In this document: positions 2,301 through 19,296 of the stretch, in pieces
Position numbering within the stretch: position 1 is the first letter of the stretch
How the letters are laid out: the number at the start of each line of letters is the position of its first letter
NCBI GenBank assembly: GCA_964510805.1
Contig: CAZEDG010000004.1
Coordinates: forward strand, 1-59,654
Direction: 5' to 3'
Origin: an uncultured Candidatus Saccharibacteria bacterium
GTDB taxonomy: Bacteria; Patescibacteriota; Minisyncoccia; Phycocordibacterales; UBA5272
DNA: 59,654 nt
The notes under the pieces: generated by a model
The model's input: only the letters and a program-made list of their open reading frames with translations
What the model was told of the DNA's origin: nothing
The model's database searches: none
Made by a program: the position numbers and the translations under genes

Positions 2301-3293
2301 GTGGACTTCGGAATCAATTCACCTCTTGATTTTTTATTGTTTGTGGTGACGGTTGCTTTTTATATCATCACCACGGCAACGTTTAATCTTGAAAAAGTAA
2401 CCAAGCATCATCGTGAAGCAATCCGCACTCAAGAAGGTGTAAAAGCCGAGAAGAAAATATTTGCAGGAGAGATGTTCGGTAATTTCCTAAGATGTCTCCT
2501 GATAGTATTCACCTTCCATGCGCTTGCTGTATTTCCTAACTTAGCGTATATCTCTTCCTCCCTGCTTTTCTTTTTTGCTTGGCGTTCAGTGTACAACGTC
2601 GAGTACTCAACGTGGGGGAAAATGGGTAAGATGTACCCTTCTTCGCAAGCGCTTACGGTGATTGCGCTTGCAGAAGTAGCCTGTAACGTGGACACAATTG
2701 TAGCCACCACAGTTGACGCGTCTCTTGCTCCTCTTATTACAGCTCTTCTTGTCTACTTCGTATTTTTTTCTGCGATAGAAGGGCTTGAGGTTGGGAGAAG
2801 GTTGATTACTTACACGCAAGGATTCATTCTTCTTATTGATCATCCAAACAAGAGAACTTCAGAAGGAAGAAAAATAAATCTGCTCACAGGGAGAGTGCTT
2901 CATGTAATGGCGAACTTCCTCCTGCTTCTTGTTATGGTATGCATGATTCCCTCAGTGCGTCCACTTATCGGAATCAAGCGACTCCTTAGTCGTAATGATT
3001 TTGGAGAGCTTATAACAGGGGTATGGACGTTTATCCTTATCATGCTTGGTGTTACGGTTTTGTTCCAAGCGCCATATGTGATCAAGATCACAACGAGCCA
3101 GGCACTCTTTTTGCAACAGTTCTTGAGTGAGTATGTGACAGGGGTGTCACTTGAGATTGCCAGAGGTGTACTCAAGTGGTATGTTGGTTTGTTTGTTGCA
3201 AGCTGTTGTGCGTTCTGGTATGCGCCTGTGATTGAGAGGCGGTCACTTGCAAAACAAAAAAGTAACGTGGTTCCTCTTAGAAAAACTGCATAA
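2301..3293 (+). CDS. Polytopic integral membrane protein of unknown function, starting at a GTG codon.
   Basis: A 330-aa ORF with multiple long hydrophobic segments. AAGGAGG lies 6 nt upstream of the GTG. Confidence 0.6.
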   Translation: MDFGINSPLDFLLFVVTVAFYIITTATFNLEKVTKHHREAIRTQEGVKAEKKIFAGEMFGNFLRCLLIVFTFHALAVFPNLAYISSSLLFFFAWRSVYNVEYSTWGKMGKMYPSSQALTVIALAEVACNVDTIVATTVDASLAPLITALLVYFVFFSAIEGLEVGRRLITYTQGFILLIDHPNKRTSEGRKINLLTGRVLHVMANFLLLLVMVCMIPSVRPLIGIKRLLSRNDFGELITGVWTFILIMLGVTVLFQAPYVIKITTSQALFLQQFLSEYVTGVSLEIARGVLKWYVGLFVASCCAFWYAPVIERRSLAKQKSNVVPLRKTA

Positions 3294-3306
3294 GCATTTT
3301 CTTCGA

Positions 3307-3345
3307 CCGCTCCTTGCATATTAAGGAGCGGTTTTGTTTTTATTT
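3307..3345 (+). terminator. Rho-independent terminator.
   Basis: CCGCTCCTT / AAGGAGCGG stem followed by a T-tract. Confidence 0.7.
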
Positions 3346-3397
3346 TTATGTTATTATGTAAATAAACAGAATATTACTCTGTTCATTATTTATTTTT

Positions 3398-3772
3398 ATG
3401 AAAACAAAAGAAAAAGGAGATCTTGCAGTAGGAAAAGCTATAAGTTTTTTTATTTCAAAAGGATATGAAGTTTGTTTGCCTATAGGAGATAAACGTGACT
3501 ATGATCTCATTGTTGAAAAAAATGGTCATTTACAAAAAGTGCAAGTAAAGTTCGCAGGATTATATACAAGGGGTAATGTGTGTAAGGTTGGTTTAAGGAT
3601 AACAGGAGGGAATCAATCATTTACACATTCAAAAAAATACAAAGATACTTCTTTCGATCTTCTTTTTATTTATACTGAAAAGGGTGAGCAGTACTTAGTT
3701 CCGTGGAAGGAAATCACATTTAGGAATGAGTTGTCAATTGAAACAAAAAAGTATATAATGTACAAGCAATAA
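3398..3772 (+). CDS. Small PD-(D/E)XK-fold endonuclease-like protein (YraN/Hjc-like).
   Basis: The pattern GDLAVGKAISFFISKGYEV...DYDLIVEKNGHLQKVQVK matches the YraN/Hjc layout (G..AE..A...L...GY...DxDLI....+..VEVK). It ends 5 nt before the tRNA. Confidence 0.5.
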   Translation: MKTKEKGDLAVGKAISFFISKGYEVCLPIGDKRDYDLIVEKNGHLQKVQVKFAGLYTRGNVCKVGLRITGGNQSFTHSKKYKDTSFDLLFIYTEKGEQYLVPWKEITFRNELSIETKKYIMYKQ

Positions 3773-3776
3773 AATC

Positions 3777-3863
3777 GCGTAGATGGTGGAGTGGCCAATC
3801 ACAATTGACTGTAAATCAATCGCCCTTCGGGCTTCGCTGGTTCGAATCCAGCTCTACGCACCA
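3777..3863 (+). tRNA. tRNA-Tyr (anticodon GTA). It is class II with a long variable arm, and the CCA end is encoded.
   Basis: Acceptor GCGTAGA/TCTACGC. Anticodon stem ATTGA/TCAAT with loop CTGTAAA. Variable-arm hairpin GCCCTTCGGGC. T-arm GCTGG-TTCGAAT-CCAGC, then discriminator A and CCA. Confidence 0.9.
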
Positions 3864-3866
3864 TAT

Positions 3867-3893
3867 GAAAAAGCGCCATCAAGGCGTCTTTTT
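3867..3893. terminator. Bidirectional hairpin terminator after the tRNA.
   Basis: AAAAAGCGCC-atcaa-GGCGtCTTTTT. Confidence 0.6.
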
Positions 3894-3901
3894 CGTATGA
3901 T

Positions 3902-3955
3902 GCGTAGAGCAGTAACAACATAGGGATGTTGTTACGGTGGGTTCGAACGAAAAAG
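3902..3955 (+). other. tRNA-like remnant. It has a copy of the tRNA-Tyr 5' acceptor strand (GCGTAGAG), an 8-bp hairpin and a T-arm-like GGGTTCGAAC, but no 3' acceptor strand.
   Basis: Sequence similarity to elements of the adjacent tRNA. Confidence 0.3.
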
Positions 3956-4094
3956 CGGTATACGAAAATAATACAAGAAAAGTTTTATTCCTGACTTTTC
4001 TTGTCATATTTTTGTCGCTTTTTCCCGGGGTCGAGGCTACGTGCCGAGATGATAAAAGCAGAGCTTTTAGAAGCGAGCCGTAGCGGTGACCGAA

Positions 4095-4111
4095 AATCCA
4101 GCTCTACGCAC
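4095..4111 (+). repeat. Direct copy of the tRNA-Tyr 3' end (AATCCAGCTCTACGCAC), att-core-like.
   Basis: A 17-nt match to 3846-3862. Confidence 0.7.
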
Positions 4112-4422
4112 ATTAACAAAAATGAACAGGTCTTTTATAGACCTGTCATTTTTGTATGTGCGTAGAGAGAAAGCCAACTGCTTGGCTTTCGTCTGGATTC
4201 GAAGTCCACAGTGATGTTTCGCTAGCAAACGAAACCACGAGGAGCCGGCCCTGGAGAAATTTTTGTGACGACAAAAATTTACTTGTGGGCGAATCCTCCA
4301 TTTTGATTCTGGGTTCGAACCAGGAAAGGGGTCGGGAAAACGTGTTTAGTTTTTCCCGTGGCGGAAGAATGGAAACCGAGGGGTTTCCAAACCGCACGCA
4401 ACGAAGTGAGGAAGGTTGTGAG

Positions 4423-4440
4423 ATTCCCAGCTCTACGCAC
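4423..4440 (+). repeat. Second direct copy of the tRNA-Tyr 3' end (ATTCCCAGCTCTACGCAC).
   Basis: Match to the tRNA T-stem and acceptor 3' strand. Confidence 0.7.
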
Positions 4441-4499
4441 AAAATAAGTTTCACTAAAAATCTCCTAAAACAAGGGTGTTTTTAGTTTTAACAAAATGC

Positions 4500-4528
4500 T
4501 TGACAAAGTTTTTTGTATGCGCTATAAT
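4500..4528 (+). promoter_or_regulatory. Consensus sigma70 promoter: TTGACA, a 17-nt spacer, then TATAAT.
   Basis: Exact hexamers with canonical spacing. Confidence 0.6.
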
Positions 4529-4534
4529 ATGGTG

Positions 4535-4622
4535 GCACGTCAGCCTGATGACCGAAAGAGGGAAACCTCCTGGTTTAAAAAACAGGCCGCCACTTCACCT
4601 TCGGAGTGGCGTTTTCTTTTTT
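4535..4622 (+). ncRNA. Candidate small RNA of about 85 nt running from the promoter above to an intrinsic terminator (GCCACT...AGTGGC plus a U-tract at 4589-4622).
   Basis: The promoter and terminator bracket a region with no ORF. Internal hairpins include GUCA..UGAC and GAGG-GAAA-CCUC. A single-stranded CCUCCU is present. Confidence 0.35.
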
Positions 4623-5012
4623 ATAATTTATTAAATTCGGTATATACGGAATCATTTTAGATTTCATCAATTCAGTTCGAACATTTTCTATTACTGTGCA
4701 CATTAACAAAAATGAACAGGTCTTTTATAGACCTGTCATTTTTGTATGTGCGTAGAGAGAAAGCCAACTGCTTGGCTTTCGTCTGGATTCGAAGTCCACA
4801 GTGATGTTTCGCTAGCAAACGAAACCACGAGGAGCCGGCCCTGGAGAAATTTTTGTGACGACAAAAATTTACTTGTGGGCGAATCCTCCATTTTGATTCT
4901 GGGTTCGAACCAGGAAAGGGGTCGGGAAAACGTGTTTAGTTTTTCCCGTGGCGGAAGAATGGAAACCGAGGGGTTTCCAAACCGCACGCAACGAAGTGAG
5001 GAAGGTTGTGAG

Positions 5013-5030
5013 ATTCCCAGCTCTACGCAT
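5013..5030 (+). repeat. Third direct copy of the tRNA-Tyr 3' end (ATTCCCAGCTCTACGCAT).
   Basis: Match to the tRNA 3' end. Confidence 0.7.
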
Positions 5031-5091
5031 CAAATAGTTTTCACTAAAAATCTCCTGTAAAAGCAGGGGATTTTTAGTTCTAGCAAAATAC

Positions 5092-5119
5092 TTGACAAAT
5101 ATTTTGTATTTGATATAAT
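5092..5119 (+). promoter_or_regulatory. Consensus sigma70 promoter: TTGACA, a 16-nt spacer, then TATAAT.
   Basis: Exact hexamers. Confidence 0.6.
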
Positions 5120-5125
5120 AGAAAT

Positions 5126-5189
5126 ATAAGGTGGCCTGAAGAAAAGTCCACCATAACATGGCCCGCAACTCGTTGCGGGCCTCTTTTTA
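5126..5189 (+). ncRNA. Candidate small RNA of about 60 nt ending at the intrinsic terminator GGCCCGCAA-CUCG-UUGCGGGCC plus a U-tract.
   Basis: Promoter and terminator pair with no ORF between them. It is paralogous in position to 4535-4622. Confidence 0.3.
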
Positions 5190-5316
5190 TCGAAAATTCT
5201 TGAGATTCGGCATATACGGAATCATTTTAGATTTCATCAATTCAGTTCTAACTTCGTCCACTACAGCGAGCATAAAGTAAATTTTCAGTAAGATCTCCTT
5301 TTTCCTGAAGTTTTTA

Positions 5317-5353
5317 CTACACTATAATTGACTTTGTGTCAATTATAGTGTAG
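5317..5353. promoter_or_regulatory. Perfect palindrome with 16-bp arms (CTACACTATAATTGAC, spacer tttgt, GTCAATTATAGTGTAG). Each arm embeds a TATAAT. It is an operator or divergent-promoter candidate.
   Basis: Exact reverse complementarity was read from the sequence. It lies 50 bp upstream of the 5402 gene. Confidence 0.6.
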
Positions 5354-5401
5354 TATATTTTTGTTGTACTTTTGCAACGTACAAGTAATCAGGAGTTGCG
5401 T

Positions 5402-5686
5402 ATGTCTTCCAACAAGCAAGAGCTCTCTACTCGTTCTGTTCGAGTGGGTAATATTTCTTTTCTTGTTCCGCCATATATTTACCGTATGAACAAAGGATGG
5501 TGCTTGATGTATCCGGGGTATCACTCTGTCTTTTTTGCTGATAACACCTACGGAGCGTCACTGTGGTCACTTCGAGCTTGTATTGACTGCAAGCTCGAGT
5601 TGCTCCGACAAAAACATGGTCGTCTTCCTTATGGACAAGGTAAGGCCCACAACGATGCCTTGATGTCGTATAAGAAGATTGCGTAA
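5402..5686 (+). CDS. Hypothetical 94-aa protein.
   Basis: AGGAG sits 7 nt upstream of the ATG at 5402. A terminator follows. Confidence 0.5.
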   Translation: MSSNKQELSTRSVRVGNISFLVPPYIYRMNKGWCLMYPGYHSVFFADNTYGASLWSLRACIDCKLELLRQKHGRLPYGQGKAHNDALMSYKKIA

Positions 5687-5726
5687 CAAGAAAGAGAAAG
5701 TAACACGAGTTCTTTCTCCTTAATTA

Positions 5727-5769
5727 CACCCCTCGAGATTTTTCTTCGGGGGGTGTTTTGCTTTTTTAT
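5727..5769 (+). terminator. Intrinsic terminator (CACCCC...GGGGGGTG plus a T-tract).
   Basis: Hairpin plus T-run. Confidence 0.6.
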
Positions 5770-5810
5770 GCTACACTAAAATTATCTATTAGAAGTAACT
5801 GCGAAACTAT

Positions 5811-6284
5811 ATGATACCAAGAAATCCAATTGGAATGAATCCTGGAAATTTACCAGAAAATCCAGCTAGAGACAATCACGCTTTTGTAAGAGAGGTTCAA
5901 CATATTGAAGATCATGGAGAAGAACCTAATGTGCTTGATAGGGCTCTTATGAGTCCGGAAGTTACTGCAAAAATCTTAACAAGAGAGTTAGATGGAATGG
6001 CTCATGTTGTTGCTAGTATTTTTATATTACTTGGTGAAAAAGGAATCGACTTGTATGACAATTCAAAGGGAGCACAAGAGGCTAGAGAGGTGCTTAGATC
6101 TTTTGAGATAGACGGCGATTTGTTGACACGGTTACTTGAAACAAGAGATGCATTAAGATCTGTCGAAGAGTTTTTACGAAAGCAGATGCCTCATCGAGAG
6201 TATATTGCAAGAGTGTTGCCAGAAGTTGAACGATATCAAAGCGCTGTAACTGCAGATAATAATAGTAGTCGTAAGGCTGGCTAG
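5811..6284 (+). CDS. Hypothetical acidic 157-aa protein, the first gene of a low-GC four-gene operon.
   Basis: ORF with 27-42-bp gaps to the following genes. Confidence 0.5.
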   Translation: MIPRNPIGMNPGNLPENPARDNHAFVREVQHIEDHGEEPNVLDRALMSPEVTAKILTRELDGMAHVVASIFILLGEKGIDLYDNSKGAQEAREVLRSFEIDGDLLTRLLETRDALRSVEEFLRKQMPHREYIARVLPEVERYQSAVTADNNSSRKAG

Positions 6285-6311
6285 TGGTAGAAAGTTGGAT
6301 AGTAGATAACC

Positions 6312-8420
6312 ATGTTCGAAGAATTTTCTCCTAAACCAGATTCGGTAGTTAATGATTCTATTCCTGATCCCCAAGCACAACCACAACTTTCTTATGAAGA
6401 GCGAATGCAACAACTTGAGGAAAGATTTAGTGTTGGTGTTCCTAAGCAAAAAATTAAAGAAGGTTATCAGACAGCAAGTCAGTTATATAAAGTTTTAAAT
6501 TCTTCTCCTGAAACTATTAGATTTATTGTTGAAGGTCTTAGAAAAAATCCCTTACTTGAAGAAGAAATACAAAAAAATGCAAAAAGTGGACCCAATAAAC
6601 CAACAGAAGCATACTCTCCGTTACTTGTTGAAAAGATTAGAGAAAAACTTAAAGAGAAACGTGAAGATAATATAATTAAAGAAGGATACAAGACAGCAAA
6701 TAAGTTTAGTACTATTTTAAAAAAAGATCCGAAGATAATTAAATCAACTGTTGCAACACTGCTTGCTAATGATCCGACACTTGAAGGTCAGATACAAAGA
6801 GGTGCAAGAACCGGAAGTCAAACAGACGATGCATATTCCCCAATATTGTTACAACTCATTGCAGATCAGTTTCCTCTATTAATGAAAAAAGGGTATTTAA
6901 AGTCAAAAAAACTTGGAGAGATTCTCGGGTATCATGACAAGACGATTAAATTAACGGTAAAAAAAATACTTAAGGAAAACCCATTACTTAAATCTGAGAT
7001 ACAAGAAAATGCAAGAGATGGAGGCTCTCCATCAGAAGCCTACTCTCCATTTTTAATCGAAAAAATTAAACAATTGTTAGATGGTTTAAATCCTAAGGAA
7101 GGATATATGACAGCAAGTCAGATACGTTACCATCTTGGCGCTGCCGTGCCTACAATTGAAAGTGCGATAGAAACGGTTAAATTTACAAGACCGGATTTAG
7201 TATCTCATGTACAAGAAATTGTAATGAGTGGAAAGAAAAAACGTAGCGCTTACTCACCTTTGTTTGTAGATGAAATTAGAAAAGTAATTAAATCTAGAGA
7301 TGTTAATCAAGGGTATTTAACTGTAAAAAAAATAGCACCACTTTTAAATTCCACTAGACAAACTATTGAGTTTATTGTTAAAGAGATCCTTAAAGAAGAT
7401 AAATTTCTAGAAAGAGAGATACAAACAAGAAATATAAAATGGGGCTCAGGAAAATCTCCCGATGCGTATTCTCCTTTTTTTATTGAAAGGATTAGAGAGA
7501 AATTAAATCTAAGTCGTAAGCAGAATATGATTAAGGATGGGTATCAGACAGCAAATGGATTACAAAATATTTTAAATAGTAATTCGAAAACCATTAAAAC
7601 AATAGTTGGAAAACTGTGCATAGATGTACCTCAGTATGAACAAGAAGTGCAAAGGAATGCAAAAATCTACAATAGATTTATTTCGGATGCATATTCTCCA
7701 CTTCTGGTTGAAAAAATTAGAGAAAAACTTAAGGAATCTGAACCTAAAATTCTTACTGTAAATCGTGGTTATATATTTCAGTACTCACTAGAACTCATTC
7801 TTAAACTTGTCGGTAATACAAATATTTTTGTTGAAAAAACCATTAAGATACAAGGAAGAAAAGGTAGCCACAGACCAGATCTGATGCACGTATCTTCTGA
7901 TGATCAAAAAGTAACTATCTTTGATATTAAGTTACAGACAACGACAATAGGTATAGAAAATGATATTGAAAATTATTCGCAATATATTAATGACAAATAT
8001 CCACAAGGTGGTAACTTGGTGTTTCTCTGTCTTAATGGGCCAGAAATTGGGAAAGAAGCTCTAGAAGGAAAAGAAAAAGTGACGGTACGGTATTATCATG
8101 CGCTTGATTTTATTGATAGATTGCTTGATAACTCACGCAATAAATTTCTATTACGCACCCTTAGAGGGAAAGAGAATGACAGTTTATCTGACACAGAACC
8201 TCTTACACCAGAAGAGATTACTAAGATAGAAGAAATTAAGTCACGATTACTTCTTCTAAGAGATCAAATACAGGGAAAAACTATTAACGGTGAGAATGGT
8301 GGTCCAGAACAAGTAGCAAAGAATACTCTCGCGTTAAGAACAAAATTAGGCCGTCTTGCAAAGAAGGCAACTAAAGAAGAGTTGTTACAACTTGATTACA
8401 CAACGTTGATGAATGTGTAG
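6312..8420 (+). CDS. 702-aa protein with six tandem ~70-aa repeats (consensus (K/Q)(E/D)GY.TA......TI...V.....E.Q.....G.....AYSP.L...I). The C-terminal domain carries a PD-(D/E)XK-like motif (RPDLMHV...IFDIK).
   Basis: The repeats are evident in the translation. The D...(D/E)xK spacing fits the restriction-endonuclease fold. Confidence 0.6.
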   Translation: MFEEFSPKPDSVVNDSIPDPQAQPQLSYEERMQQLEERFSVGVPKQKIKEGYQTASQLYKVLNSSPETIRFIVEGLRKNPLLEEEIQKNAKSGPNKPTEAYSPLLVEKIREKLKEKREDNIIKEGYKTANKFSTILKKDPKIIKSTVATLLANDPTLEGQIQRGARTGSQTDDAYSPILLQLIADQFPLLMKKGYLKSKKLGEILGYHDKTIKLTVKKILKENPLLKSEIQENARDGGSPSEAYSPFLIEKIKQLLDGLNPKEGYMTASQIRYHLGAAVPTIESAIETVKFTRPDLVSHVQEIVMSGKKKRSAYSPLFVDEIRKVIKSRDVNQGYLTVKKIAPLLNSTRQTIEFIVKEILKEDKFLEREIQTRNIKWGSGKSPDAYSPFFIERIREKLNLSRKQNMIKDGYQTANGLQNILNSNSKTIKTIVGKLCIDVPQYEQEVQRNAKIYNRFISDAYSPLLVEKIREKLKESEPKILTVNRGYIFQYSLELILKLVGNTNIFVEKTIKIQGRKGSHRPDLMHVSSDDQKVTIFDIKLQTTTIGIENDIENYSQYINDKYPQGGNLVFLCLNGPEIGKEALEGKEKVTVRYYHALDFIDRLLDNSRNKFLLRTLRGKENDSLSDTEPLTPEEITKIEEIKSRLLLLRDQIQGKTINGENGGPEQVAKNTLALRTKLGRLAKKATKEELLQLDYTTLMNV

Positions 8421-8454
8421 ATACTATGTGTATCACTTGCTATACTAAAACCAT

Positions 8455-9513
8455 ATGACACTAGGTCAAGAACGCAAAGTAACTAACGATCATAACAAAG
8501 CTCTCATTCTTAATGACAAGCTAGAAGAATTTCGTGAAGCTCATCCGCGATCAAAAAGACCTGACCAAGAAATAGTTGACGGGATGGTTAAAGATGACGC
8601 ACGCAATCTTTTTCCTTATAAACATTTTTCTCCTGATACCCAAGAGTGGCTTAGAAACTTATCAATTTCTGGAATTAAGGTATTAGAAGATGGGTATCTT
8701 GAGGTTCGTAAGTGGGATAATACTGGACGACATTTTGGTAGACCAAGAAGAATGTTCCAAAGAGTTGATGATATAGATGCCGGGATACGAATGCAAGATC
8801 ATATTCTCGAAGGGTATATTACAAGGAAAGATAGCAAAAAAGATAACAAAGAGAAGGCAAGAGAAGACGAAAGTGTTAGATTAGATTCTATCGAGGAAGT
8901 AATAGAAGAAGCAAACTCACTTTTTCTTGCGTGGAAGTTTGCAAAGCAGGAAGATAAAGAAGAAGTGAAGCAGAGACTTGCTCAAGTAATTCTTACTCTT
9001 GAAAAATGTCGCAATGAGTTCAAGGTACGAACAAAAAGACAAGCACAAGCAGTGCTTCGTATGAAGGATAGTAGAGGAAGAGACAATCCGAGCGCGCTCG
9101 CTCTCCGTACGGTCACCGCTCTTAATAATCTGCAAATGAGATTGCAAGAAATTCAGGATATTGCACCAAAAGTTGCTTTGCGAAAAGAGCTACTTGTACT
9201 TGAGAAGCGTCGAAATGAAAAGCTTTGTTTTAAGGCGGTTGCAAAATTACGTTTTATTTTACGACATGTGTTTTTTGGCAAGAGTCCAAAAAGTCTTAGA
9301 GACTCTGATGCTACCGGACTTCTCGGTAAAGTAGGAGAAGCCAAGGAAGCACTTCGCGAAGTCATCATTTCTCCTTATCGAGAAAGACGTAATCAGGTAT
9401 TGTTTTTTCTTGCAACCCTAGAAGATGTAATGAAATCAAAAGAATCAATGACAGAAAACAGAGAGATGATTAAGAAACTATTACTTGATATTATAAAAAT
9501 GTTGGAGGAGTAG
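8455..9513 (+). CDS. Hypothetical 352-aa coiled-coil-rich protein.
   Basis: ORF in the operon with no recognisable motif. Confidence 0.5.
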   Translation: MTLGQERKVTNDHNKALILNDKLEEFREAHPRSKRPDQEIVDGMVKDDARNLFPYKHFSPDTQEWLRNLSISGIKVLEDGYLEVRKWDNTGRHFGRPRRMFQRVDDIDAGIRMQDHILEGYITRKDSKKDNKEKAREDESVRLDSIEEVIEEANSLFLAWKFAKQEDKEEVKQRLAQVILTLEKCRNEFKVRTKRQAQAVLRMKDSRGRDNPSALALRTVTALNNLQMRLQEIQDIAPKVALRKELLVLEKRRNEKLCFKAVAKLRFILRHVFFGKSPKSLRDSDATGLLGKVGEAKEALREVIISPYRERRNQVLFFLATLEDVMKSKESMTENREMIKKLLLDIIKMLEE

Positions 9514-9555
9514 GTGTTGTTTTTGTGACTGGTTATTCCGTGCTACTATATCCTC

Positions 9556-10980
9556 ATGCAATATCTTCTCATTCCTTCCCGTCACATTCTTTATAGCAAA
9601 GAGCAGTATGACGCTTTGCTTAATCATCTTAAGAAAAATTCTTATGAGAAAGTAATTCTCGCGATTACTTCGTCTGATCTTAATAATTGTAAGTACTCAT
9701 CGATCGATATCTTCTATCGCACACTTATGGCAAGCACGCTTGCTGGGCATCTTCTTAGGGAATGTAATGCTACCTGTGTTATTACAACTGTTCCTCATAC
9801 CAGGAAAACAGATTCGTATGCATCGTATGTGGTGAAGCATGTTTTTTGGAAAATAGGGCTTACGCTTACACCAGAAAATACAAGAGTCTTCTCGTATGGA
9901 AAGTACATGTCAGAGTCTTTTTCTTCTGCTTCATATGATACCGTATCTTGTTTTGTTAAAGACCATGTGCATCTTTTTGAAAAACTTTTTAGAGAAGGGG
10001 ATAGTGAGTATTTTTGGAGTATGCTTTCTTTACCAAGTGAGCAAGTGTTTTCTCATCAAAGCGAACTTCTTGGAATAACCAAAAAAATATGGCTTGATCC
10101 TATTCTCAAAGAAATGGGAAGTATCACCGAGACACGTAATTATCATATTTATACGCATGCTATGAGTAATGAGCAGGTGATTGAGTACAAGTACAACGAT
10201 ATTAAGGATTATCTTGTGGAAGGAAAAATTGTTGATGAGGGGTGTGCTGATTGTGCGCTCTTTATTCCTGTTGCGCGAGACTTTCCTGATTCTGATCTTA
10301 TTGGTGTTGAGATCTCAAGTGATTTTATCGCAAGAGCAAATGAAAGAATCAGGGAAGGGTTCTTCGGTGGAAGCTTCGTGACAGTGCTTCAGGCGAATTT
10401 GCTTTTTCCTATTTTCCAAAATGAATCTATTGATACGGTGATTTGTAACTCTACGCTTCATGAGATTTGGTCTTATAATAACAAGATGGAATCTCTTAAG
10501 GGATATCTTACTTACAAATATAATCAGCTAAGGAAAGGTGGAAGACTTATTGCTCGTGATGTAGTTGGCGTGGAAGATCCTCGCAAGGTGGTGCTTCTTA
10601 GAGATGTGACCGATAACAATACGATGTGGAAGAAGTTCTTGAATGACTTTGATCATGTGGGTGATGATGTTTGCGAGGAGGTAGTGGTTAATGGTCAGGT
10701 CTATGCGAAGACTTCGTATAAGCTTGCTTCTGAATATTTGCTTCATAAGGATTATCAAGATAATTGGCAGAGTGAGATGCATGAAGAGTTTTGCCACATG
10801 AATAGTACTTCTTGGAAAGAATTGCTTCTTTCGGTCGGGTTTACAAACGTTATCGTGAATGCGTATCAGAATAGCTGGATTGTTGAGAATCGTTTCAAAG
10901 GTAAAGTGATACTTCTTGATGAGTCATTTCGCGAAGTTGCATATCCTCCAACAAATGTAGTGATTGTCGCGGAGAAGTGA
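9556..10980 (+). CDS. 474-aa protein with a C-terminal class-I SAM-dependent methyltransferase-like fold and an uncharacterised N-terminal half.
   Basis: Motif I-like VDEGCADCALF, post-I acidic LIGVEIS, and motifs II/III at FVTVLQANLLFP...IDTVICNSTLHEI. No D/NPPY motif, so it does not look like an N6/N4 DNA methyltransferase. Confidence 0.5.
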   Translation: MQYLLIPSRHILYSKEQYDALLNHLKKNSYEKVILAITSSDLNNCKYSSIDIFYRTLMASTLAGHLLRECNATCVITTVPHTRKTDSYASYVVKHVFWKIGLTLTPENTRVFSYGKYMSESFSSASYDTVSCFVKDHVHLFEKLFREGDSEYFWSMLSLPSEQVFSHQSELLGITKKIWLDPILKEMGSITETRNYHIYTHAMSNEQVIEYKYNDIKDYLVEGKIVDEGCADCALFIPVARDFPDSDLIGVEISSDFIARANERIREGFFGGSFVTVLQANLLFPIFQNESIDTVICNSTLHEIWSYNNKMESLKGYLTYKYNQLRKGGRLIARDVVGVEDPRKVVLLRDVTDNNTMWKKFLNDFDHVGDDVCEEVVVNGQVYAKTSYKLASEYLLHKDYQDNWQSEMHEEFCHMNSTSWKELLLSVGFTNVIVNAYQNSWIVENRFKGKVILLDESFREVAYPPTNVVIVAEK

Positions 10981-11160
10981 CGTATTAAAGCAAAAAAGCG
11001 TTGATAGATATACATAAAAAGGGAGATTTTATAGATAGAAATAATGGAATTGTAAATATTGACAAATATAATTATATATGATAAATTAATCTTGTCTCAA
11101 AATTGGGTTTCCCAACAAGAGCAAATGTAGTTCATCGTTAATCAATCAGGAGAATTCTCA

Positions 11161-13230
11161 ATGGAAACTGTAGGTGGTATCTTCAACGTGATTTCCGGCC
11201 ATCTTGGCACGATCATCGCTTTCATCGCCTTGGTCGCATTCATCCTCCTCTACAAGTGGACGTTCCGTCTCTTCGGCATCTACATCATCCCCGATGACTC
11301 GCTCGGCACACTGACCAAGAAGTTCGTGCTGTTCGGCGCGAACCGCCAGCTGCCAGCGGGCAAGATCGTGGCGCTCCACGGCGAGGCTGGCTACCAGGCC
11401 GACACCCTCGCTCCCGGCATCCACTTCTTTCTGTGGCCGTGGCAGTACGACGTGAACATCTCGAAGTTCACCGTGATCCCTCCGGGGCAGGTCGGTGTGG
11501 TCGAGGCGTGCGATGGTCTACCTCTTCCGGATGGGCGCATCATCGCCAAGGACGTCGTCTGTGATAACTTCCAGGACGCACGCGCCTTCCTCGAGAATAG
11601 TGGTGAGCGTGGCGTGCAGGTGGGCATCATCCCGCCTGGCGCCTGGCGCATCAACACTCTGCTGTTCACGGTGAAGATGTCCCCGATGATCGTCGTCGGC
11701 CCCAACCAGATCGGTGTGGTCGAAGCGCACGACGGTGCCCCGCTCTCAGGCGGGCGCATCCTCGGCAAACATGTCGACAGCGACATGTTCCAGGATGGTC
11801 AAGCCTTCCTCAACAACGGTGGTGAGCGTGGCCCGCAGATGACCATCATCCCCCAAGGTCAGTACCGGATCAATCCGGCACTGTTCAAGGTCGAGATGGC
11901 CGATGTGGTCGACGTGCCTGATGAGAAGATCGGGGTGGTCACCACCAAGGAAGGCGCTCCGCTTCCCACTGGCGACATCGCCGGCGAAGAGGTCGACGGG
12001 CATAACTCGTTCCAGGACCCGATGGCGTTCGTTGGAAGTGGCGGCACCAAGGGTCTCCAGGTCCAGGTGCTGCGCGCCGGTCGCTACTTCATCAACCCGA
12101 AGTTCGCCATCGTGGAGATGAAGGACATGCTCGAGGTGCCGATCGCGCACGTCGGCGTCGTCATCGCGTTTGTCGGCAAGAAGGGCGAGGACGTCACCGG
12201 TGCCGGGTTCAAGCACGGCAACATGGTGCGCAAGGGCGAACGCGGTGTCTGGATCGACGTGCTCGATCCGGGCAAGTACCCGATGAACCCGTACGCCTTC
12301 AAGGTGATCAACGTTCCGACGGCAAACGTCGTGCTCAACTGGGCCAACAGCAAGACCGAGAGCCACAAGCTCGACGAGAAGCTGTCGACCATCACCGTCC
12401 GCTCTTCCGACGGCTTCCCGCTCAACCTGGACGTCAGCCAGATCATCCACATCCCGACCAGCGAGGCCCCCAAGGTCATCGCCCGGTTCGGCAGCATGCT
12501 GGCGCTGGTCACGCAGGTGCTCGAGCCCACCATCGGCAACTACTTCCGCAACGCGGCGCAGAGCTACGGTTGCATCGACTTCGTCGTCGGCCGTGCGCAG
12601 CGCCAAGCCGAGGCTGAACAGGCCATCAGCGAGGCGCTGAAGGAGTACGACGTGGTGGCTGTCCGCACGCTGATCGGCGACCTCGTTCCGCCCCAGGAAC
12701 TGATGGACACGCTGACTCAGCGCAAGGTGGCCGAGCAACAGAAGCTGACGTACGGCGTACAGCAACAGGCGCAAGAGGCGCGCAAGCTCCTCGAGCAAGC
12801 GCATGCGCAAGCCGAGACCCAGGCGAGCGTGGTGACCGCCGAACGTTCCGTCGAGATCGCTCGCTTCAATGCGAGCGCCGCGGTGGAGACCGCGGAAGGT
12901 GGTGCCAAGGCGAAGAAGATCAACGCCAATGCGGACGCTGAAGTCCTCCGTGTCGTCGGCGAAGCCGAAGGCGCGAAGATCACTGCGGTGGGTTCCGCCG
13001 AAGCTGAGGTCATGACTCGCAAGACGACCGCCATCGGTGCCGACAACTACGCGCGCATTCAGGTCGCCGATTCGCTCGGCAAGGCCGGTATCAAGCTGGT
13101 TCCCGACGTCATGGTCGCAGGTGGTGACGGAACGCGCGGTGGCACCATTGTCGACGCACTGCTCGGCAACATCCTTGCCAAGGGTCTCCCTGGCACGCCC
13201 TCCGCGAAGCCGGCCGAAGCCAAGGCTTGA
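11161..13230 (+). CDS. Flotillin/SPFH (band-7) family membrane protein with an N-terminal TM helix, four ~60-aa internal repeats and an Ala/Glu-rich flotillin-type C-terminus. The CDS is strongly GC-rich.
   Basis: Repeats of the form IIPPGQVGVVEAxDGxPLPxGRI...FQDxxAFLxNGGERG. C-terminal AEAEQ.../EAEGAKI stretches. AGGAG lies 9 nt upstream of the ATG. Confidence 0.7.
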   Translation: METVGGIFNVISGHLGTIIAFIALVAFILLYKWTFRLFGIYIIPDDSLGTLTKKFVLFGANRQLPAGKIVALHGEAGYQADTLAPGIHFFLWPWQYDVNISKFTVIPPGQVGVVEACDGLPLPDGRIIAKDVVCDNFQDARAFLENSGERGVQVGIIPPGAWRINTLLFTVKMSPMIVVGPNQIGVVEAHDGAPLSGGRILGKHVDSDMFQDGQAFLNNGGERGPQMTIIPQGQYRINPALFKVEMADVVDVPDEKIGVVTTKEGAPLPTGDIAGEEVDGHNSFQDPMAFVGSGGTKGLQVQVLRAGRYFINPKFAIVEMKDMLEVPIAHVGVVIAFVGKKGEDVTGAGFKHGNMVRKGERGVWIDVLDPGKYPMNPYAFKVINVPTANVVLNWANSKTESHKLDEKLSTITVRSSDGFPLNLDVSQIIHIPTSEAPKVIARFGSMLALVTQVLEPTIGNYFRNAAQSYGCIDFVVGRAQRQAEAEQAISEALKEYDVVAVRTLIGDLVPPQELMDTLTQRKVAEQQKLTYGVQQQAQEARKLLEQAHAQAETQASVVTAERSVEIARFNASAAVETAEGGAKAKKINANADAEVLRVVGEAEGAKITAVGSAEAEVMTRKTTAIGADNYARIQVADSLGKAGIKLVPDVMVAGGDGTRGGTIVDALLGNILAKGLPGTPSAKPAEAKA

Positions 13231-13396
13231 CTCCTGGCTGGTTGAGTAACACTCACTAGTGCAAGGCTAGTGCGAGCCCTGTCAAACGTTAAATCGTTTC
13301 GGGGCTTTTTTCTTTTCCTAACTTTTACTATTTTTTGTATCGTGTACACATTATTAGCTTTTTTGTTGTGGAACTTTTTGGTAGTATATAAAGTAT

Positions 13397-14056
13397 ATGA
13401 GTACAAAGTCTTCAGATATTCGTTTTGCTATTGTTTCTACTGATATTATTTTGCTTCGAGAAAATGAAGGCGATATCGAATTTGGCGTGATGGATATTGA
13501 TAGACCTCCTTACTATGTTCATATGGAGGGTTTTGTCGGTGGTGTACTCAGACCAGAAGAGACTGCTCTTATGGCGAGTCATCGAATTTTGGAAGAAAAG
13601 ACTTCTATCAAACCTAGCGAAGTGCAGTTCTTTCCTCTTGGTTTTTATGATGACCCTAAGCGAGATGAGAGAGGGCGTGTCGTTGCGCTCGCATATCTTG
13701 GTATTCTTACGGGATCAGGTGAGGAATATGGGCTTACTTGGTACCCACTGTACAAGAAGGCAAAGTTTGCATACGATCACACACTTATGTTACGTGATAC
13801 GATAGAGTACCTTAAGTCACATCTCTATGTCTCAACGATTGCACTCGCGTTTCTCCCTAAACATTTTGTGGTAAGTAAACTCAAAGCTATTTTTGATTAC
13901 ATAGAAGGGGAGGAGATTGATAAGAGAAATTTTTATAAATTCCTAGACACCTATCCGGTAGAAAAAACAAAAGAACTGCAGAGTGAAGGGAGGGGGAGGC
14001 CAGCACTTATTTATAAGAAGAAACAGACTAAAGCTTTCTTTTTATCTAAGAAATAA
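13397..14056 (+). CDS. nrtR: Nudix hydrolase fused to a C-terminal winged-HTH, i.e. an NrtR-like NAD-metabolism regulator.
   Basis: Nudix box GGVLRPEETALMASHRILEEKTSI. C-terminal DKRNFYKFL...GRGRPALIYKK resembles the NrtR DNA-binding domain signature. Confidence 0.6.
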   Translation: MSTKSSDIRFAIVSTDIILLRENEGDIEFGVMDIDRPPYYVHMEGFVGGVLRPEETALMASHRILEEKTSIKPSEVQFFPLGFYDDPKRDERGRVVALAYLGILTGSGEEYGLTWYPLYKKAKFAYDHTLMLRDTIEYLKSHLYVSTIALAFLPKHFVVSKLKAIFDYIEGEEIDKRNFYKFLDTYPVEKTKELQSEGRGRPALIYKKKQTKAFFLSKK

Positions 14057-14140
14057 TGTTAGAACCTACACACTTAAGTGACGTGTAGAGAAAACACCTT
14101 ATTTGTGGGTGTTTTTTGCTTTATTTTGCTTGTACACATG

Positions 14141-14229
14141 TTAATTAGTGTAAAACTTGCACTAATTAATCACCTATGCTAGAGTGTAGATAGATATTAG
14201 TGTAGTTAATACACTAATAAATACAAAAG
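14141..14229. promoter_or_regulatory. Two palindromes upstream of the PP2C gene: TTAATTAGTG-N9-CACTAATTAA (14141-14169) and TATTAGTGTA-gttaa-TACACTAATA (14205-14229). Both share the half-site TTAGTGTA/TACACTAA.
   Basis: Read directly from the sequence. The same half-site appears upstream of nadE. Confidence 0.5.
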
Positions 14230-14289
14230 GAATCAATTAAAAATAATTCCATAAAGTTCTTTGAAATTATAGTTCTGAAAGGAAATCAT

Positions 14290-15153
14290 ATGAACACTGT
14301 TTCGCATCTTGAAGAATTGTTTAGAGTTGGTGCAGGAAAAGTTCCTGGAACTGATCATACAATGCCCGGGCTTCCTGCTTGGAAAAATTGTCAGGACGCG
14401 TACCGTGTAGAAATAAACAAGCACGCCATCGTTATCGTTGTTTGTGACGGTAATGGTAGTGAGTCAAATAGCGAAGTTGGAGCATCTCTTTCGGCGCAAC
14501 TCTTGGCAAGAAAAATTGCTGAAGAGGTGAAGATTAGAGAGGTTTTTGAACCAATCGAAATTCTTGAAGAGGCACGCTGTGCACTCATGCAACTTTTTCT
14601 TGATCTCGGTGAGCATCTTATGGGAAGCTTCACTGAGAACGCAAATCGTTTTATGCTTGCAACTGCGCTTGTTGCGATTGTGACCGAAGAAGAAACAGTA
14701 ATTGCTGGTATTGGTGATGGATATTATGCGGTAAATGGAGAAGTTGTTGAAATTGGCCCATTCCCTGGTAACGCACCACCGTACCCTGTCTATGCAATTA
14801 CCGGATCGTCACTTGCTTCGCATTCGCCTGAACTTGTTCGCTTCACTTTATATCGCAGGATGCCAACTCAAGAAGTTGATACGCTTGCGATTATGAGTGA
14901 TGGGGTGAAATATCTCATTCAAGCAGTTGGCACGCCTCTGCCTAAGAAGCCTCATGAACAAGTTCCTCCTCTTGATACATTTTGGTTGGAAGAGCGGTAT
15001 GTGAAGAATCCTGACAATATTCGTCGTCAGCTTGCGCTTATTAACATCGAAACGATTTCGTACACCGAAGATGGTAAGCCTTACTTACGTACTGGCGTGC
15101 TCAAGGATGATACAACAATTGTCATCATGAGGCGTAATACGTCTAGTACGTAG
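14290..15153 (+). CDS. PP2C-family Ser/Thr protein phosphatase.
   Basis: Metal-binding motifs VCDGNGS, GIGDG and MSDG. Confidence 0.65.
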   Translation: MNTVSHLEELFRVGAGKVPGTDHTMPGLPAWKNCQDAYRVEINKHAIVIVVCDGNGSESNSEVGASLSAQLLARKIAEEVKIREVFEPIEILEEARCALMQLFLDLGEHLMGSFTENANRFMLATALVAIVTEEETVIAGIGDGYYAVNGEVVEIGPFPGNAPPYPVYAITGSSLASHSPELVRFTLYRRMPTQEVDTLAIMSDGVKYLIQAVGTPLPKKPHEQVPPLDTFWLEERYVKNPDNIRRQLALINIETISYTEDGKPYLRTGVLKDDTTIVIMRRNTSST

Positions 15154-15178
15154 TCGTCTTGCTAACCCAAAAGGAGAT

Positions 15179-17056: not shown

Positions 17057-17122
17057 CAAGAAGAGGTCAGAAGATCTCCAGGTTATTTTTCATCAACGCT
17101 CAACCATGAAAGGAAACTGAGC

Positions 17123-18169
17123 ATGAACCCGTCATTCTACAACGCGAGCAATGCATCCAACTGGGCATATCGCCCCGATCAACGAGCTGTGTTTCTCGAA
17201 GCACAGGAAACCATCAAGCGTGAGAAGATTCGTCCTCACAACACTGACAAAAAGAAGGTACACCTTCTCATGATCGATGTGCAGAAGGACTTCTGTCTCC
17301 CGGAAGGAACTCTGTATGTTGGTGGTCGTTCTGGTACTGGTGCAATCGATGATTCTCGGCGTCTTGCTGAGTTCATCTATCGTGAAGTGAAGAACATTAC
17401 TGAGACAACGGTAACGCTCGACACTCACTTTTCTCACCAGATTTTCTTTCCGTCGTTTTGGGTTGAAACAGCAACCGGGTCTGCACCTCTTCCTCATACT
17501 GAGATTACAACTGAAGAAATTAGGAAGGGTAAGTTCGCACCACATCCGGCAATGGCTTGGCTCTTCAAGCAGTTCGGTGGTCAGTATGCTTGGCTTCAAA
17601 AACAAGTTTTGTACTATTGCCAAGAGCTTGAAAAGGCTGGTAAGTACAAGCTTTATCTGTGGCCTGAGCATTGCATCATTGGATCTGATGGGCACGCGCT
17701 GGTTGGTGTTGTGCATGAAGCACGCATGTTCCATTCGTATGTTCGTAGCGCTTGGTCGAACGCAGAAGTGAAGGGTGGTAATCCTCTGACAGAGAATTAC
17801 TCGATCCTTTCACCTGAAGTCACGACAACCTGGCAAGGTGGCGCGCTTGCACAAAAGAATTCCAATTTTGTGAAAACGCTCCTTGATGCGGATCGAGTGA
17901 TTATTGCAGGTCAAGCTTCGAGTCACTGTGTCGCGTCTTCTACGGACGACCTTTTGCATGAGATCAACGCTCAAGATCCTGAACTTGCAAAGAAGGTATA
18001 CGTTGTGACTGATCTTATGTCAGCTGTGACGGTGCCTGATGGTAAGGGAGGGTTCTATCTCGATTGCACTTCGCAAGCAGAGATGGCGTTTGCTCGCTGG
18101 GAAAAGGCTGGCATGAAGCTCGTCACTTCGACGGTAAGCATGGCAGACTGGCCCGGCATGGATCTCTGA
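17123..18169 (+). CDS. pncA: Nicotinamidase (isochorismatase-family cysteine hydrolase).
   Basis: LLMIDVQKDFC N-terminal motif and the catalytic Cys in SSHCVAS. Confidence 0.65.
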   Translation: MNPSFYNASNASNWAYRPDQRAVFLEAQETIKREKIRPHNTDKKKVHLLMIDVQKDFCLPEGTLYVGGRSGTGAIDDSRRLAEFIYREVKNITETTVTLDTHFSHQIFFPSFWVETATGSAPLPHTEITTEEIRKGKFAPHPAMAWLFKQFGGQYAWLQKQVLYYCQELEKAGKYKLYLWPEHCIIGSDGHALVGVVHEARMFHSYVRSAWSNAEVKGGNPLTENYSILSPEVTTTWQGGALAQKNSNFVKTLLDADRVIIAGQASSHCVASSTDDLLHEINAQDPELAKKVYVVTDLMSAVTVPDGKGGFYLDCTSQAEMAFARWEKAGMKLVTSTVSMADWPGMDL

Positions 18170-18202
18170 ACCTAACCAAGCAACCAAAGAAAGGAGTTCA
18201 TC

Positions 18203-19057: not shown

Positions 19058-19115
19058 TAAGTAAACTGAGTTGTTCTTTTATACGTAGATAAAGACAAAT
19101 ACGTCCCTCTACGCA

Positions 19116-19280: not shown

Positions 19281-19296
19281 TATAACATCATCACCT

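Follow-up and report, generated by a model that had tools for sequence, protein, structure and literature searches.

Within the window (the whole 59,654-nucleotide stretch of DNA that was analysed), four open reading frames of the + strand, here called g1 to g4, follow one another with gaps of 27, 34 and 42 bp, which confirms the tight spacing described in an earlier note on this DNA. The genes and the features that bear on them are as follows:

3777..5035, + strand: tRNA-Tyr and three downstream att-like copies of its 3′ end (ARAGORN, Rfam, direct-repeat family D7)
5726..5766, + strand: intrinsic-terminator-like hairpin (12-bp stem, 7 G-C pairs, T-run)
5811..6284, + strand: g1, 157 aa, acidic, first open reading frame of the block
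6312..8420, + strand: g2, 702 aa, repeat array, predicted PD-(D/E)XK domain and helical tail
6453..7730, + strand: six type A repeats of g2, ∼66 aa each (repeat HMM domains, internal BLASTP)
7746..8171, + strand: predicted PD-(D/E)XK nuclease core of g2, aa 479-620 (E494, P522-D523, D538, K540)
8172..8417, + strand: conserved C-terminal alpha-helical tail of g2, aa 621-702 (predicted helices, family conservation)
8455..9513, + strand: g3, 352 aa, recurrent partner, Patescibacteria-specific family
9556..10980, + strand: g4, 474 aa, N-terminal 215 aa without assignment, C-terminal half class-I SAM-methyltransferase-like

The hairpin lies directly before g1, where it ends the upstream unit and sets the 5′ boundary of the block; no terminator-like site was found on the + strand within the four genes. 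Further upstream, the tRNA-Tyr occupies positions 3777-3863 (ARAGORN, Rfam), and its 3′ end, CCAGCTCTACGCAC, is found in three extra copies at 4098, 4427 and 5017 (direct-repeat family D7, positions 3848, 4098, 4427 and 5017), the whole lying 0.8-2 kb from the block. Such att-like duplications of a tRNA suggest an integration site, in keeping with the remark that the block sits in an integration hotspot. The foreign, AT-rich composition attributed to the block held for a single gene. GC contents are 39.0% for g1, 33.2% for g2, 38.3% for g3 and 38.5% for g4 (36.3% for the whole block), compared to 40.0% for the window and 41.1 ± 4.1% for its 19 other genes. Only g2 is a low outlier among the four, at about 1.9 SD, and g4 is typical of its host (GC3 of 35%, for a mean of 34%). 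The range of about 25-35% GC first proposed for these genes has to be replaced by the measured 33.2-39.0%.

The 702-aa product of g2, a single-copy gene in the window, does contain the six tandem repeats first noticed by eye, far above chance expectation. The repeat HMM matched 6 out of 6 (domain E = 1e-6 to 7e-13), at aa 48-113, 122-187, 191-256, 261-326, 331-398 and 407-473, and internal BLASTP alignments gave E = 6e-46 to 1e-25. The period is 69-75 aa, with GY at aa 51, 125, 194, 264, 334 and 410, and AYSP at aa 100, 174, 243, 313, 385 and 460. Identity to repeat 1 is 38-56%, and TRF found no DNA-level tandem repeat. We conclude that they are old and diverged, and that they hold no simple variable-residue code; to call the array “programmable-looking” was too strong.

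The helix-turn-helix character proposed for these repeats received tentative support from profile comparisons. The type A family consensus yielded sub-threshold matches to HTH_29 (24.0 bits, below the cut-off of 28.1), HTH_28, HTH_11, HTH_23, HTH_7 and NUMOD1 (weak, E 0.02), as well as matches at E 1e-4 to 0.1 to numerous further helix-turn-helix families, and many of these independent sub-threshold matches converge on the same repeat segment. Profile matches in the PDB include PurR, BirA and RacA, and hhalign placed the repeat on the PurR helix-turn-helix with 83% probability. The repeats of g2 itself, searched singly against Pfam, gave no match. From these sequence profiles, type A repeats appear helix-turn-helix-like and are a putative nucleic-acid recognition array. 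The g2 array is strongly basic (net charge +21, pI 9.6). That of P0009, also of type A, is acidic (net -24), meaning that DNA binding is not required of every array. Overall, 432 copies of the type A repeat were counted in 66 proteins, among them SNF2 and DEAD helicase fusions: the repeats are joined to a SNF2 helicase and a methyltransferase in P0011 and P0016, and to a ResIII/DEAD helicase in P0023. In these three proteins the fusion partners are DNA enzymes throughout.

At the C-terminus of g2, the sequence RPDLMHV...IFDIK had been read as a D...(D/E)xK arrangement. The motif is present (P522-D523, D538-I539-K540) and its residues are conserved across the nuclease family: E494, P522, D523 and K540 are invariant in the alignment, while position 538 is Asp in 12 of the 13 sequences and Glu in P0035. 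Residues 479-620 are predicted to adopt the core alpha-beta-beta-beta-alpha-beta fold, with the catalytic signature E...PD...(D/E)xK on helix 1, strand 2 and strand 3, and a profile aligns the signature residues with PD74 and D90-I-K92 of EcoRV. Conservation, predicted fold and structure search agree on the proposed nuclease domain, and we assign aa 479-620, on the modelled fold, to the PD-(D/E)XK superfamily; such a domain would be expected to cleave DNA. Beyond it, the tail is predicted to form helices at model residues 155-176 and 187-207, plus shorter ones, and has a consensus across the family (LS..QI.KI.EI...L..LK...LAK...EEIM.TDF..LLDF). It is possibly a dimerisation or partner-binding element. 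Judging from the sequences of P0003, a full-length homologue with 31% identity over aa 45-700, and of P0012, the fusion of repeats and nuclease in g2 is genuine.

The g2-type C-terminal domain was present in 17 of 78 matches (about 17 proteins), all metagenomic. The family is rare, with 17 representatives among 1.84 billion, every one a singleton. Pattern-based scans, of limited sensitivity, found no member in GTDB species representatives, and neither the g2 nor the g3 family on IMG/VR viral contigs. The N-terminal arrays fall into types A, B, C and D, at least four unrelated repeat types. One cleavage domain joined to at least four unrelated arrays means that recognition modules were exchanged and the catalytic module kept. 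Type C arrays, which seem to resemble the PF18780 repeat of Pfam, were considered as homing-endonuclease-associated repeats of that type, and this assignment was rejected as neither two type C repeats nor full-length P0006 matched the model. Most homologues were found in housekeeping or small-ORF regions, so that the gene-neighbourhood check did not bear out a defence-island context. Several nuclease loci lie amid core genes, devoid of mobile-element markers: locus L032 has tandem nuclease paralogues, the upstream one also with ExK, between rbfA and the ribosomal operon, and the L002 nuclease stands among housekeeping genes. tRNAs adjoin several loci, and runs of small ORFs surround some of them; together with the att-like repeats at the tRNA-Tyr of the window, such settings are of a mobile type.

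The g3 family has 58 members, all from Patescibacteria, and no known domain. The protein is helical, without an enzymatic signature, and matched the PADLOC oMTase profile weakly (E 0.025). A nuclease gene adjoins a g3 homologue in three independent lineages (the window, L011/L004 and L012-14), and probably also in the P0003 contig. In these paired loci it is always found directly 5′ of g3, the two genes being in tandem at L012 and in the window, and divergent at L011. At L012, a 72%-identical g3 adjoins a nuclease with a type B array, the nuclease domain of which is 45% identical to that of g2; no other gene of the window is found there. The nuclease occurs without g3 at L002, L008-10, L032 and in the P0006 contig. 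Most g3 genes stand alone (L016-L031), and a diverged subfamily is syntenic with rpoD-dnaG, so that g3 is not dedicated to the nuclease. Genes for DUF559 (L016, L017, L020) or GIY-YIG (L018) proteins flank other g3 loci, and a LAGLIDADG-like gene flanks the L012 g3. The g3 protein stands out as abundant, specific to Patescibacteria and recurrently encoded next to nucleases.

The two outer genes behave differently from this pair. No family match was found for g1 in Pfam, NCBIfam or PADLOC (zero matches in the latter); its cluster has 2 members from one strain, and that of g4 a single member. Among the 32 related loci that were fetched, tblastn matched neither gene; the nuclease and g3 pair alone recurs. 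The earlier proposal of a conserved four-gene module is therefore abandoned: the conserved unit is made of two genes, g2 and g3, a four-gene system is unsupported, g1 and g4 being local neighbours specific to the lineage. As announced, the C-terminal half of g4 has class-I SAM-methyltransferase motifs, scoring above the gathering thresholds of Methyltransf_31 (45.7 bits, cut-off 27), _25, _12 and _11 in Pfam, and aa 197-474 matched NCBIfam NF005379 at 5e-16. Curated models place a Rossmann-like methyltransferase domain at aa ∼215-360. Its motif I, VDEGCADC, is degenerate, with GxGxG reduced to the first Gly, and SAM binding is putative. The lack of (D/N)PPY was also correctly noticed, since a regular-expression search of g4 for (D/N/S)PP(Y/F/W) found none. 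An amino-(N6/N4) DNA methyltransferase was rejected on the absence of motif IV and because the nearest solved relatives, small-molecule or protein methyltransferases, do not act on DNA. Without the amino-DNA-methyltransferase motif, and with motif I degenerate, g4 gives no support to a restriction-modification-like logic. We conclude that this methyltransferase is a bystander.

The reading we favour, and to which we give about an even chance, is that g2 encodes a DNA endonuclease of modular build, probably sequence-specific, whose recognition arrays can be exchanged, and that it makes up a sporadic accessory unit of two genes together with g3. The six diverged repeats of ∼70 aa, of helix-turn-helix type, would be the target-recognition array; the conserved PD-(D/E)XK domain would cleave DNA, given its predicted fold and conserved active site, and the helical tail would probably mediate dimerisation or partner binding. 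Among family members, recognition modules would be swapped and the catalytic module retained. The helical-bundle protein g3 most likely controls the nuclease or cooperates with it. In candidate-phyla-radiation bacteria, the g2-g3 unit would be a rare accessory element of sporadic occurrence. Its nuclease would serve either selfish homing or defence, in the latter case with a target long enough to make a methyltransferase unnecessary.

An unlikely alternative, though one with several observations on its side, is a free-standing homing-type endonuclease for which g3 is a conserved landing gene, next to which selfish nuclease genes would settle and spread, rather than a functional partner. The constant position of the nuclease gene directly 5′ of g3, whichever way it points, the many g3 loci empty of nuclease, as expected of a selfish sporadic element, the DUF559, GIY-YIG and LAGLIDADG-like genes next to other g3 loci, and a multi-module recognition fit for long target sites all speak for it. 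However, the window and L012 share the g2-g3 pair and no flanks, meaning that the pair moves together and not the nuclease alone; the nucleases adjacent to g3 have differing arrays (A and B), so that a common target in g3 is not evident; others are found far from any g3, and neither an intron nor an intein context was observed. A toxin-antitoxin-like pair, in which g3 would keep a toxic g2 in check and so stabilise the element or trigger abortive infection, seems distinctly improbable. It would account for the adjacency recurring in both orientations, for a helical g3 without enzymatic signature, and for the confinement of both genes to one phylum-level group. Against it, g3 is large for an antitoxin (352 aa) and usually solo, several genomes carry the nuclease without a g3, tandem paralogues being among these cases, and no known toxin-antitoxin family was matched.

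Loci among core genes (L032, L002), together with the g3 subfamily at rpoD-dnaG, would suit a chromosomal DNA-repair or chromatin factor (e.g. NucS/EndoMS-like) whose repeats make protein or structure-specific DNA contacts instead of recognising sequence. We hold this to be very unlikely, as the family is extremely rare (all 17 representatives are singletons) and close relatives have had their whole N-terminal arrays exchanged, which is atypical of housekeeping repair enzymes. Finally, a four-gene defence or addiction operon, with g4 marking self DNA, g2 attacking unmarked DNA, and g1 and g3 as accessories, appears highly unlikely. It would agree with the co-directional spacing without internal terminator, the tRNA-adjacent site and a match of g4 to the PADLOC mad2 profile, but g1 and g4 are missing from every nuclease or g3 locus fetched, no motif IV of the (D/N)PPY type is found in g4, whose motif I is degenerate, the solved proteins closest to g4 methylate small molecules or proteins, the composition of g4 is host-like, and PADLOC found no other component of MADS or of any other system.

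A bolder version of the modular endonuclease would make g2 a natural counterpart of TALENs and zinc-finger nucleases, with a FokI-like domain dimerising via the tail, exchangeable repeat cassettes and g3 as a dedicated regulator; we consider it rather doubtful. Each ∼70-aa repeat would then read a few base pairs, and the enzyme would be retargeted to long asymmetric sites by the swapping of arrays (A-D), by amplification of repeats in particular lineages and by tandem paralogues acting as two arms (L032). If the modular reading is true, candidate-phyla-radiation bacteria possess nucleases built like designer nucleases, from one cutting domain and interchangeable repeat families. This would be a new architecture among selfish or defensive nucleases, would give a function to the large unannotated type A repeat family, and would offer a possible source of modular DNA-recognition scaffolds.

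The architecture had not been recognised as a described system, and our searches concur: neither the repeats nor the nuclease domain nor g3 are accounted for by any match in Pfam, NCBIfam, PADLOC or the literature. With PADLOC-DB 2.0, no multi-component system was matched at the locus; g2 matched PDC-S05 weakly (best E 0.0023), and the one single-gene match was that of g4 (aa 86-343) to mad2 (5.6e-13), the methyltransferase of the MADS defence system (bioRxiv 10.1101/2023.03.30.534895). Other MADS genes are absent, g4 has neither motif IV nor an intact motif I, and elsewhere it is unlinked to the nuclease.

A Type II/IIS restriction-modification system was rejected for want of a conserved cognate DNA methyltransferase: no methyltransferase or g4 homologue adjoins the nuclease at L002, L008-12, L032 or in the P0003 and P0006 contigs. 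Type IIS enzymes (FokI; N.BspD6I/R.BspD6I) have three distinct recognition subdomains, whereas recognition in the g2 family would rely on 4-6 units or more, all homologous and ∼70 aa long. The g2 family also has a conserved helical tail that is extra to the Type IIS plan and, in g3, a recurrent partner that is not a methyltransferase; no similarity between the two groups can be detected in sequence. NucS/EndoMS, a widespread housekeeping repair enzyme, shows an identity of 12-15% and differs in its N-terminal domain, while the g2 family is rare with swapped arrays.

Modular homing endonucleases (I-TevI and I-HmuI with NUMOD/HTH; the PD-(D/E)XK enzyme I-Ssp6803I) are also sporadic and also combine small DNA-binding modules with a nuclease. 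The weak NUMOD1 match, the homing-endonuclease families near g3 loci and the patchy occurrence of the nuclease next to g3 are suggestive in this respect, but the catalytic and repeat families are others, and g2 is a homing candidate only. TALEs and TALE-like proteins (BurrH, Bat) likewise have tandem homologous modules, which in g2 are presumed to read DNA. TALE-like repeats are 33-35-aa helical hairpins, near-identical outside the specificity residues; those of g2 are ∼70 aa long, apparently helix-turn-helix-like, old and diverged, with no two-residue code and no evidence in sequence or fold of kinship with TALEs. A TALE-like repeat protein was rejected on the period, the identity to repeat 1 and the empty TRF result. 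Natural TALEs are not known to be nuclease fusions. It is with engineered TALENs and zinc-finger nucleases that g2 shares its overall plan, an array joined to a PD-(D/E)XK domain, which in the engineered enzymes is of FokI type.

The block comprises four consecutive genes, g1 to g4, preceded by a hairpin:

5726-5766, + strand: strong terminator-like hairpin, 5' of g1
5811-6284, + strand: g1, ORF of 157 aa
6312-8420, + strand: g2, ORF of 702 aa
8455-9513, + strand: g3, ORF of 352 aa
9556-10980, + strand: g4, ORF of 474 aa

Given the short intergenic gaps (27, 34 and 42 bp for g1/g2, g2/g3 and g3/g4), the hairpin before g1 and the absence of any + strand terminator-like site inside the block, co-transcription of the four genes is plausible. 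The block had been described in the earlier note as noticeably AT-rich, which was overstated: GC contents are 39.0% for g1, 33.2% for g2, 38.3% for g3 and 38.5% for g4, compared to 40.0% for the window and a mean of 41.1 ± 4.1% for 19 other genes. Only g2 is low, by about 1.9 SD (GC3 21%), and the composition of g4 matches that of the contig.

The g2 protein contains six repeats, spaced at 69-75 aa, with the GY motif starting at aa 51, 125, 194, 264, 334 and 410, and the AYSP motif at aa 100, 174, 243, 313, 385 and 460. Internal BLASTP alignments gave E values from 6e-46 to 1e-25, and identity to repeat 1 is 38-56%. These repeats are old; Tandem Repeats Finder detected no DNA-level array in g2, where nucleotide echoes of 64-84% remain. 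A word-indexed homologue search with g2 returned the same strain only, and the family was recovered when HMMER was run exhaustively against 1.84 billion representatives, yielding 78 relatives. Iterated HMM searches on these 78 proteins found 432 copies of the g2-type repeat (type A, consensus APEGWMTASALAKELGVSEKTIKKIAEKYREEHPEWFKEYLDKSGRVAEHYSPELVEIIKEEL) in 66 proteins, with 3 to 15 copies each.

No model in Pfam, NCBIfam or PHROG covers the type A repeat. Its consensus scored just below threshold against HTH_29 (24 bits, cut-off 28.1), with further sub-threshold matches to HTH_28, HTH_11, HTH_23, HTH_7 and NUMOD1. Searched against the PDB, the profile retrieved the helix-turn-helix proteins PurR (E 0.013), BirA and RacA, and hhalign aligned it with the PurR helix-turn-helix over 49 columns at 83% probability. 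The g2 array is basic (net charge +21), and in other proteins type A repeats are joined to helicases, as set out below. These weaker lines together point, with moderate confidence, to a helix-turn-helix-type nucleic-acid-binding array; our confidence is held at that level because the type A array of the relative P0009 is acidic, and because g2 repeats taken singly gave no Pfam hit. A search near the locus for iteron-like DNA repeats, as possible array binding sites, turned up only tRNA-end copies and coding repeats.

Type A arrays form a large uncharacterised repeat superfamily of candidate-phyla-radiation bacteria. Mostly they lie C-terminal to an unannotated domain of ~250 aa with the motifs PRT, MMR..SYR and DEEGNATFVV (P0009, P0013-15, P0019 and ~25 others). 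In P0023 the array is C-terminal to a ResIII/DEAD helicase; it is N-terminal to a SNF2 helicase in P0011 and P0016, the latter also carrying a methyltransferase, and to a C-terminal extension of ~1,000 aa in P0036 and P0054.

The C-terminal ~220 aa of g2 are common to 17 of the 78 relatives. In an alignment of 13 sequences, G486, Q490, E494, P522, D523 and K540 are invariant, and position 538 is Asp in 12 sequences and Glu in one; the pattern is the classical E...PD...(D/E)xK signature. AlphaFold2, run on the alignment of the domain, produced a model (pLDDT 89.3, pTM 0.87) in which a helical bundle follows an alpha-beta-beta-beta-alpha-beta core; Foldseek matched this model to NucS and Card1 with a probability of 0.99-1.00. 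A sequence profile also aligned the PD...DIK of g2 with the catalytic residues of EcoRV (E about 0.05). The proposal that g2 ends in a PD-(D/E)XK nuclease thus holds for the fold and the active site, from which cleavage activity is predicted. The family is rare, and all its members are metagenome-derived singletons. A word-indexed search with the domain alignment found no homologue, pattern-limited scans found none in GTDB representative genomes or IMG/VR, and a pattern scan of metagenome contigs found five loci, two of them informative.

This conserved domain is joined to at least four unrelated repeat arrays.

Proteins with the nuclease domain, by type of N-terminal repeat array
Type A: g2, P0003, P0012
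Type B (YTLEDY..EW..HPEWHG...FFP): P0002, P0004, P0005, P0027 and the 670-aa protein of locus L012
Type C (WTEE.I...W...KFN..YI...): P0006, P0007, P0008, P0010, P0045
Type D: P0033, P0035

Type C arrays were considered as homing-endonuclease-associated repeats of Pfam, and had no Pfam match. Repeats of g2 resemble one another more closely than they resemble any from P0003 or P0012, which rules out position-by-position orthology of the g2 and P0003 repeats and means that each lineage amplified or homogenised its arrays independently.

One JGI contig, L001, is identical to window 2781-7786, and from its position 5296 (window 7786, g2 aa ~492) continues into unrelated sequence, a beta-helix-like ORF and then high-GC DNA. 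The break falls exactly at the junction between array and nuclease domain; either the assembly is chimeric or recombination took place at this point. An assembly artefact as the origin of the g2 fusion was dismissed, since the same fusion occurs independently in P0003 and P0012; the P0003-g2 alignment, which spans aa 45-700, indicates that it is genuine. A further locus, L032, carries at 6598-13537, between rbfA and the S9/L13/L17/rpoA operon, two tandem paralogues (1128 and 1178 aa) with a 16-bp gap between them. Both combine a long repeat array of their own with the same PD-(D/E)XK domain, and the pair may form a heterodimeric two-arm nuclease.

Among the neighbours of g2, g3 is the recurrent one. 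In L012-14 the type B nuclease is directly followed by a g3 homologue of 72% identity, and nuclease and g3 are the only genes common to the window and L012. In L011/L004 a 356-aa homologue (39% identity) lies upstream of P0005 in divergent orientation, and the P0003 contig has a 361-aa gene in the equivalent place, a candidate counterpart by position. The nuclease stands without g3 in L002, L008-10, L032 and the P0006 contig. The adjacency is therefore recurrent but facultative. We collected 58 g3 homologues, the named ones from Moranbacteria or Patescibacteria; none has a Pfam domain, and a pattern scan of IMG/VR contigs found no g3. The g3 model (pLDDT 78.9) consists of a small N-terminal alpha/beta domain and a long helical bundle; structural matches were generic bundles only, and no solved structure matched by sequence. 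A HEPN-like Rx4-6H motif was rejected: conservation is limited to an RH pair, and the fold search matched no HEPN protein.

In its C-terminal half g4 resembles class-I methyltransferases; it lacks a (D/N/S)PP(Y/F/W) motif, in agreement with the first reading of this gene. Its motif I is degenerate (VDEGCADC), and its nearest relatives of solved structure are methyltransferases that do not act on DNA. PADLOC gave an isolated single-gene match to mad2, which is predicted to be the MADS methyltransferase (bioRxiv 10.1101/2023.03.30.534895). The N-terminal 215 aa matched no family model and nothing in the PDB; an NMNAT/cytidylyltransferase-like identity, suggested by the NAD-salvage cluster downstream, was dropped after BLASTP against the NadM-Nudix protein of the window and the PDB search both came back blank.

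The contig resembles a Patescibacteria chromosome, with genes for ClpB, LeuRS and UvrA and a cluster of NrtR, NadE, PncB and NadM-Nudix. On its upstream side the block is preceded by a PDDEXK_5 endonuclease gene, by tRNA-Tyr and by three more copies of the tRNA 3' end, which look like integration scars; tRNA genes are also found 0.2-2 kb from several related loci. The endonuclease gene (3398-3772, 124 aa, 31% GC; Pfam 3.8e-24, PADLOC 'homing endonuclease' 1.4e-11) ends 4 nt before tRNA-Tyr. Downstream of the tRNA are two 424-bp direct repeats (4108-4529 and 4698-5120; 95.8% identity overall, first 300 nt identical), each with a ~290-nt segment (cores 4157-4441 and 4747-5031) that starts with GTGCGTAGAG and finishes with CTCTACGCAC, ends which mimic the acceptor stem of tRNA-Tyr. 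Folding, run on the first copy only (4150-4445), gave -117.6 kcal/mol (z = -6.2 versus shuffles). The segment has no match in Rfam or by ARAGORN. It could represent an uncharacterised structured RNA or, alternatively, a small integrative element. Each copy is followed (4499-4620 and 5091-5200) by a sigma-70 promoter close to consensus, TTGACAAA-N17-TATAAT, and then by a short unit rich in hairpins and a T-run; these are possibly small RNA transcription units. At 5315-5355 a perfect 18-nt inverted repeat (TACTACACTATAATTGAC / GTCAATTATAGTGTAGTA) shares sequence with a promoter-like site immediately 5' of a 104-aa ORF (5372-5686), and looks like an operator.

Directly 3' of g4, and separated from it by a promoter-like site at 11059-11087, is a 689-aa SPFH/Band-7 gene (11161-13230; GC 62.7% and GC3 82%, contig 40%), which was either acquired recently from a high-GC organism or misassembled. 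The NAD-salvage cluster (13397-23599) encodes an NrtR-type regulator (NUDIX and winged helix), NadE, PncB and a NadM-like cytidylyltransferase-NUDIX protein, together with a PP2C phosphatase and three ORFs lacking a Pfam match. The GC minimum of the window over 1 kb, 22.9%, is at 57001-58000, far below the g1-g4 region.

The repeat array, the PD-(D/E)XK fold with its conserved active site, the exchange of arrays and the repeated, non-obligate presence of g3 beside the nuclease are the established parts of this system. We infer that the array would bind DNA and position a FokI/NucS-like cleavage domain, that the conserved helical tail would serve in dimerisation or g3 binding, and that nuclease and g3 would constitute a mobile accessory nuclease, selfish or defensive. 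Such a unit would need no methyltransferase because its site would be long. The rival that retains one is a restriction-modification-like model of all four genes; tblastn found no g1 or g4 homologue in the 32 related loci, and the 90% clusters of both are confined to this strain.

Further rivals give g3 another part to play, as the antitoxin of a pair with the nuclease, or as the landing site of a homing nuclease. In most of its loci g3 stands without the g2-type nuclease. Other copies adjoin DUF559, GIY-YIG, Fic, type I restriction-modification or serine-recombinase genes, and a diverged subfamily adjoins rpoD-dnaG. Small endonuclease genes of the DUF559 kind flank solo homologues in L016/L017 (10001-11519, by Pfam) and L020 (83-1601, by sequence resemblance only), a GIY-YIG gene flanks one in L018 (7352-9272), and the solo g3 of L016 and L020 adjoins type I restriction-modification or Fic genes. 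A repair factor is the remaining rival to the mobile accessory nuclease.

The repeats, the nuclease subfamily, g3 and their pairing were found described neither in Pfam, NCBIfam, PHROGs or PADLOC nor in the papers searched, so that the initial impression of an architecture outside described systems stands. Its components belong to familiar classes, putative helix-turn-helix modules on the one hand and a PD-(D/E)XK nuclease on the other, and their layout is Type IIS-like.
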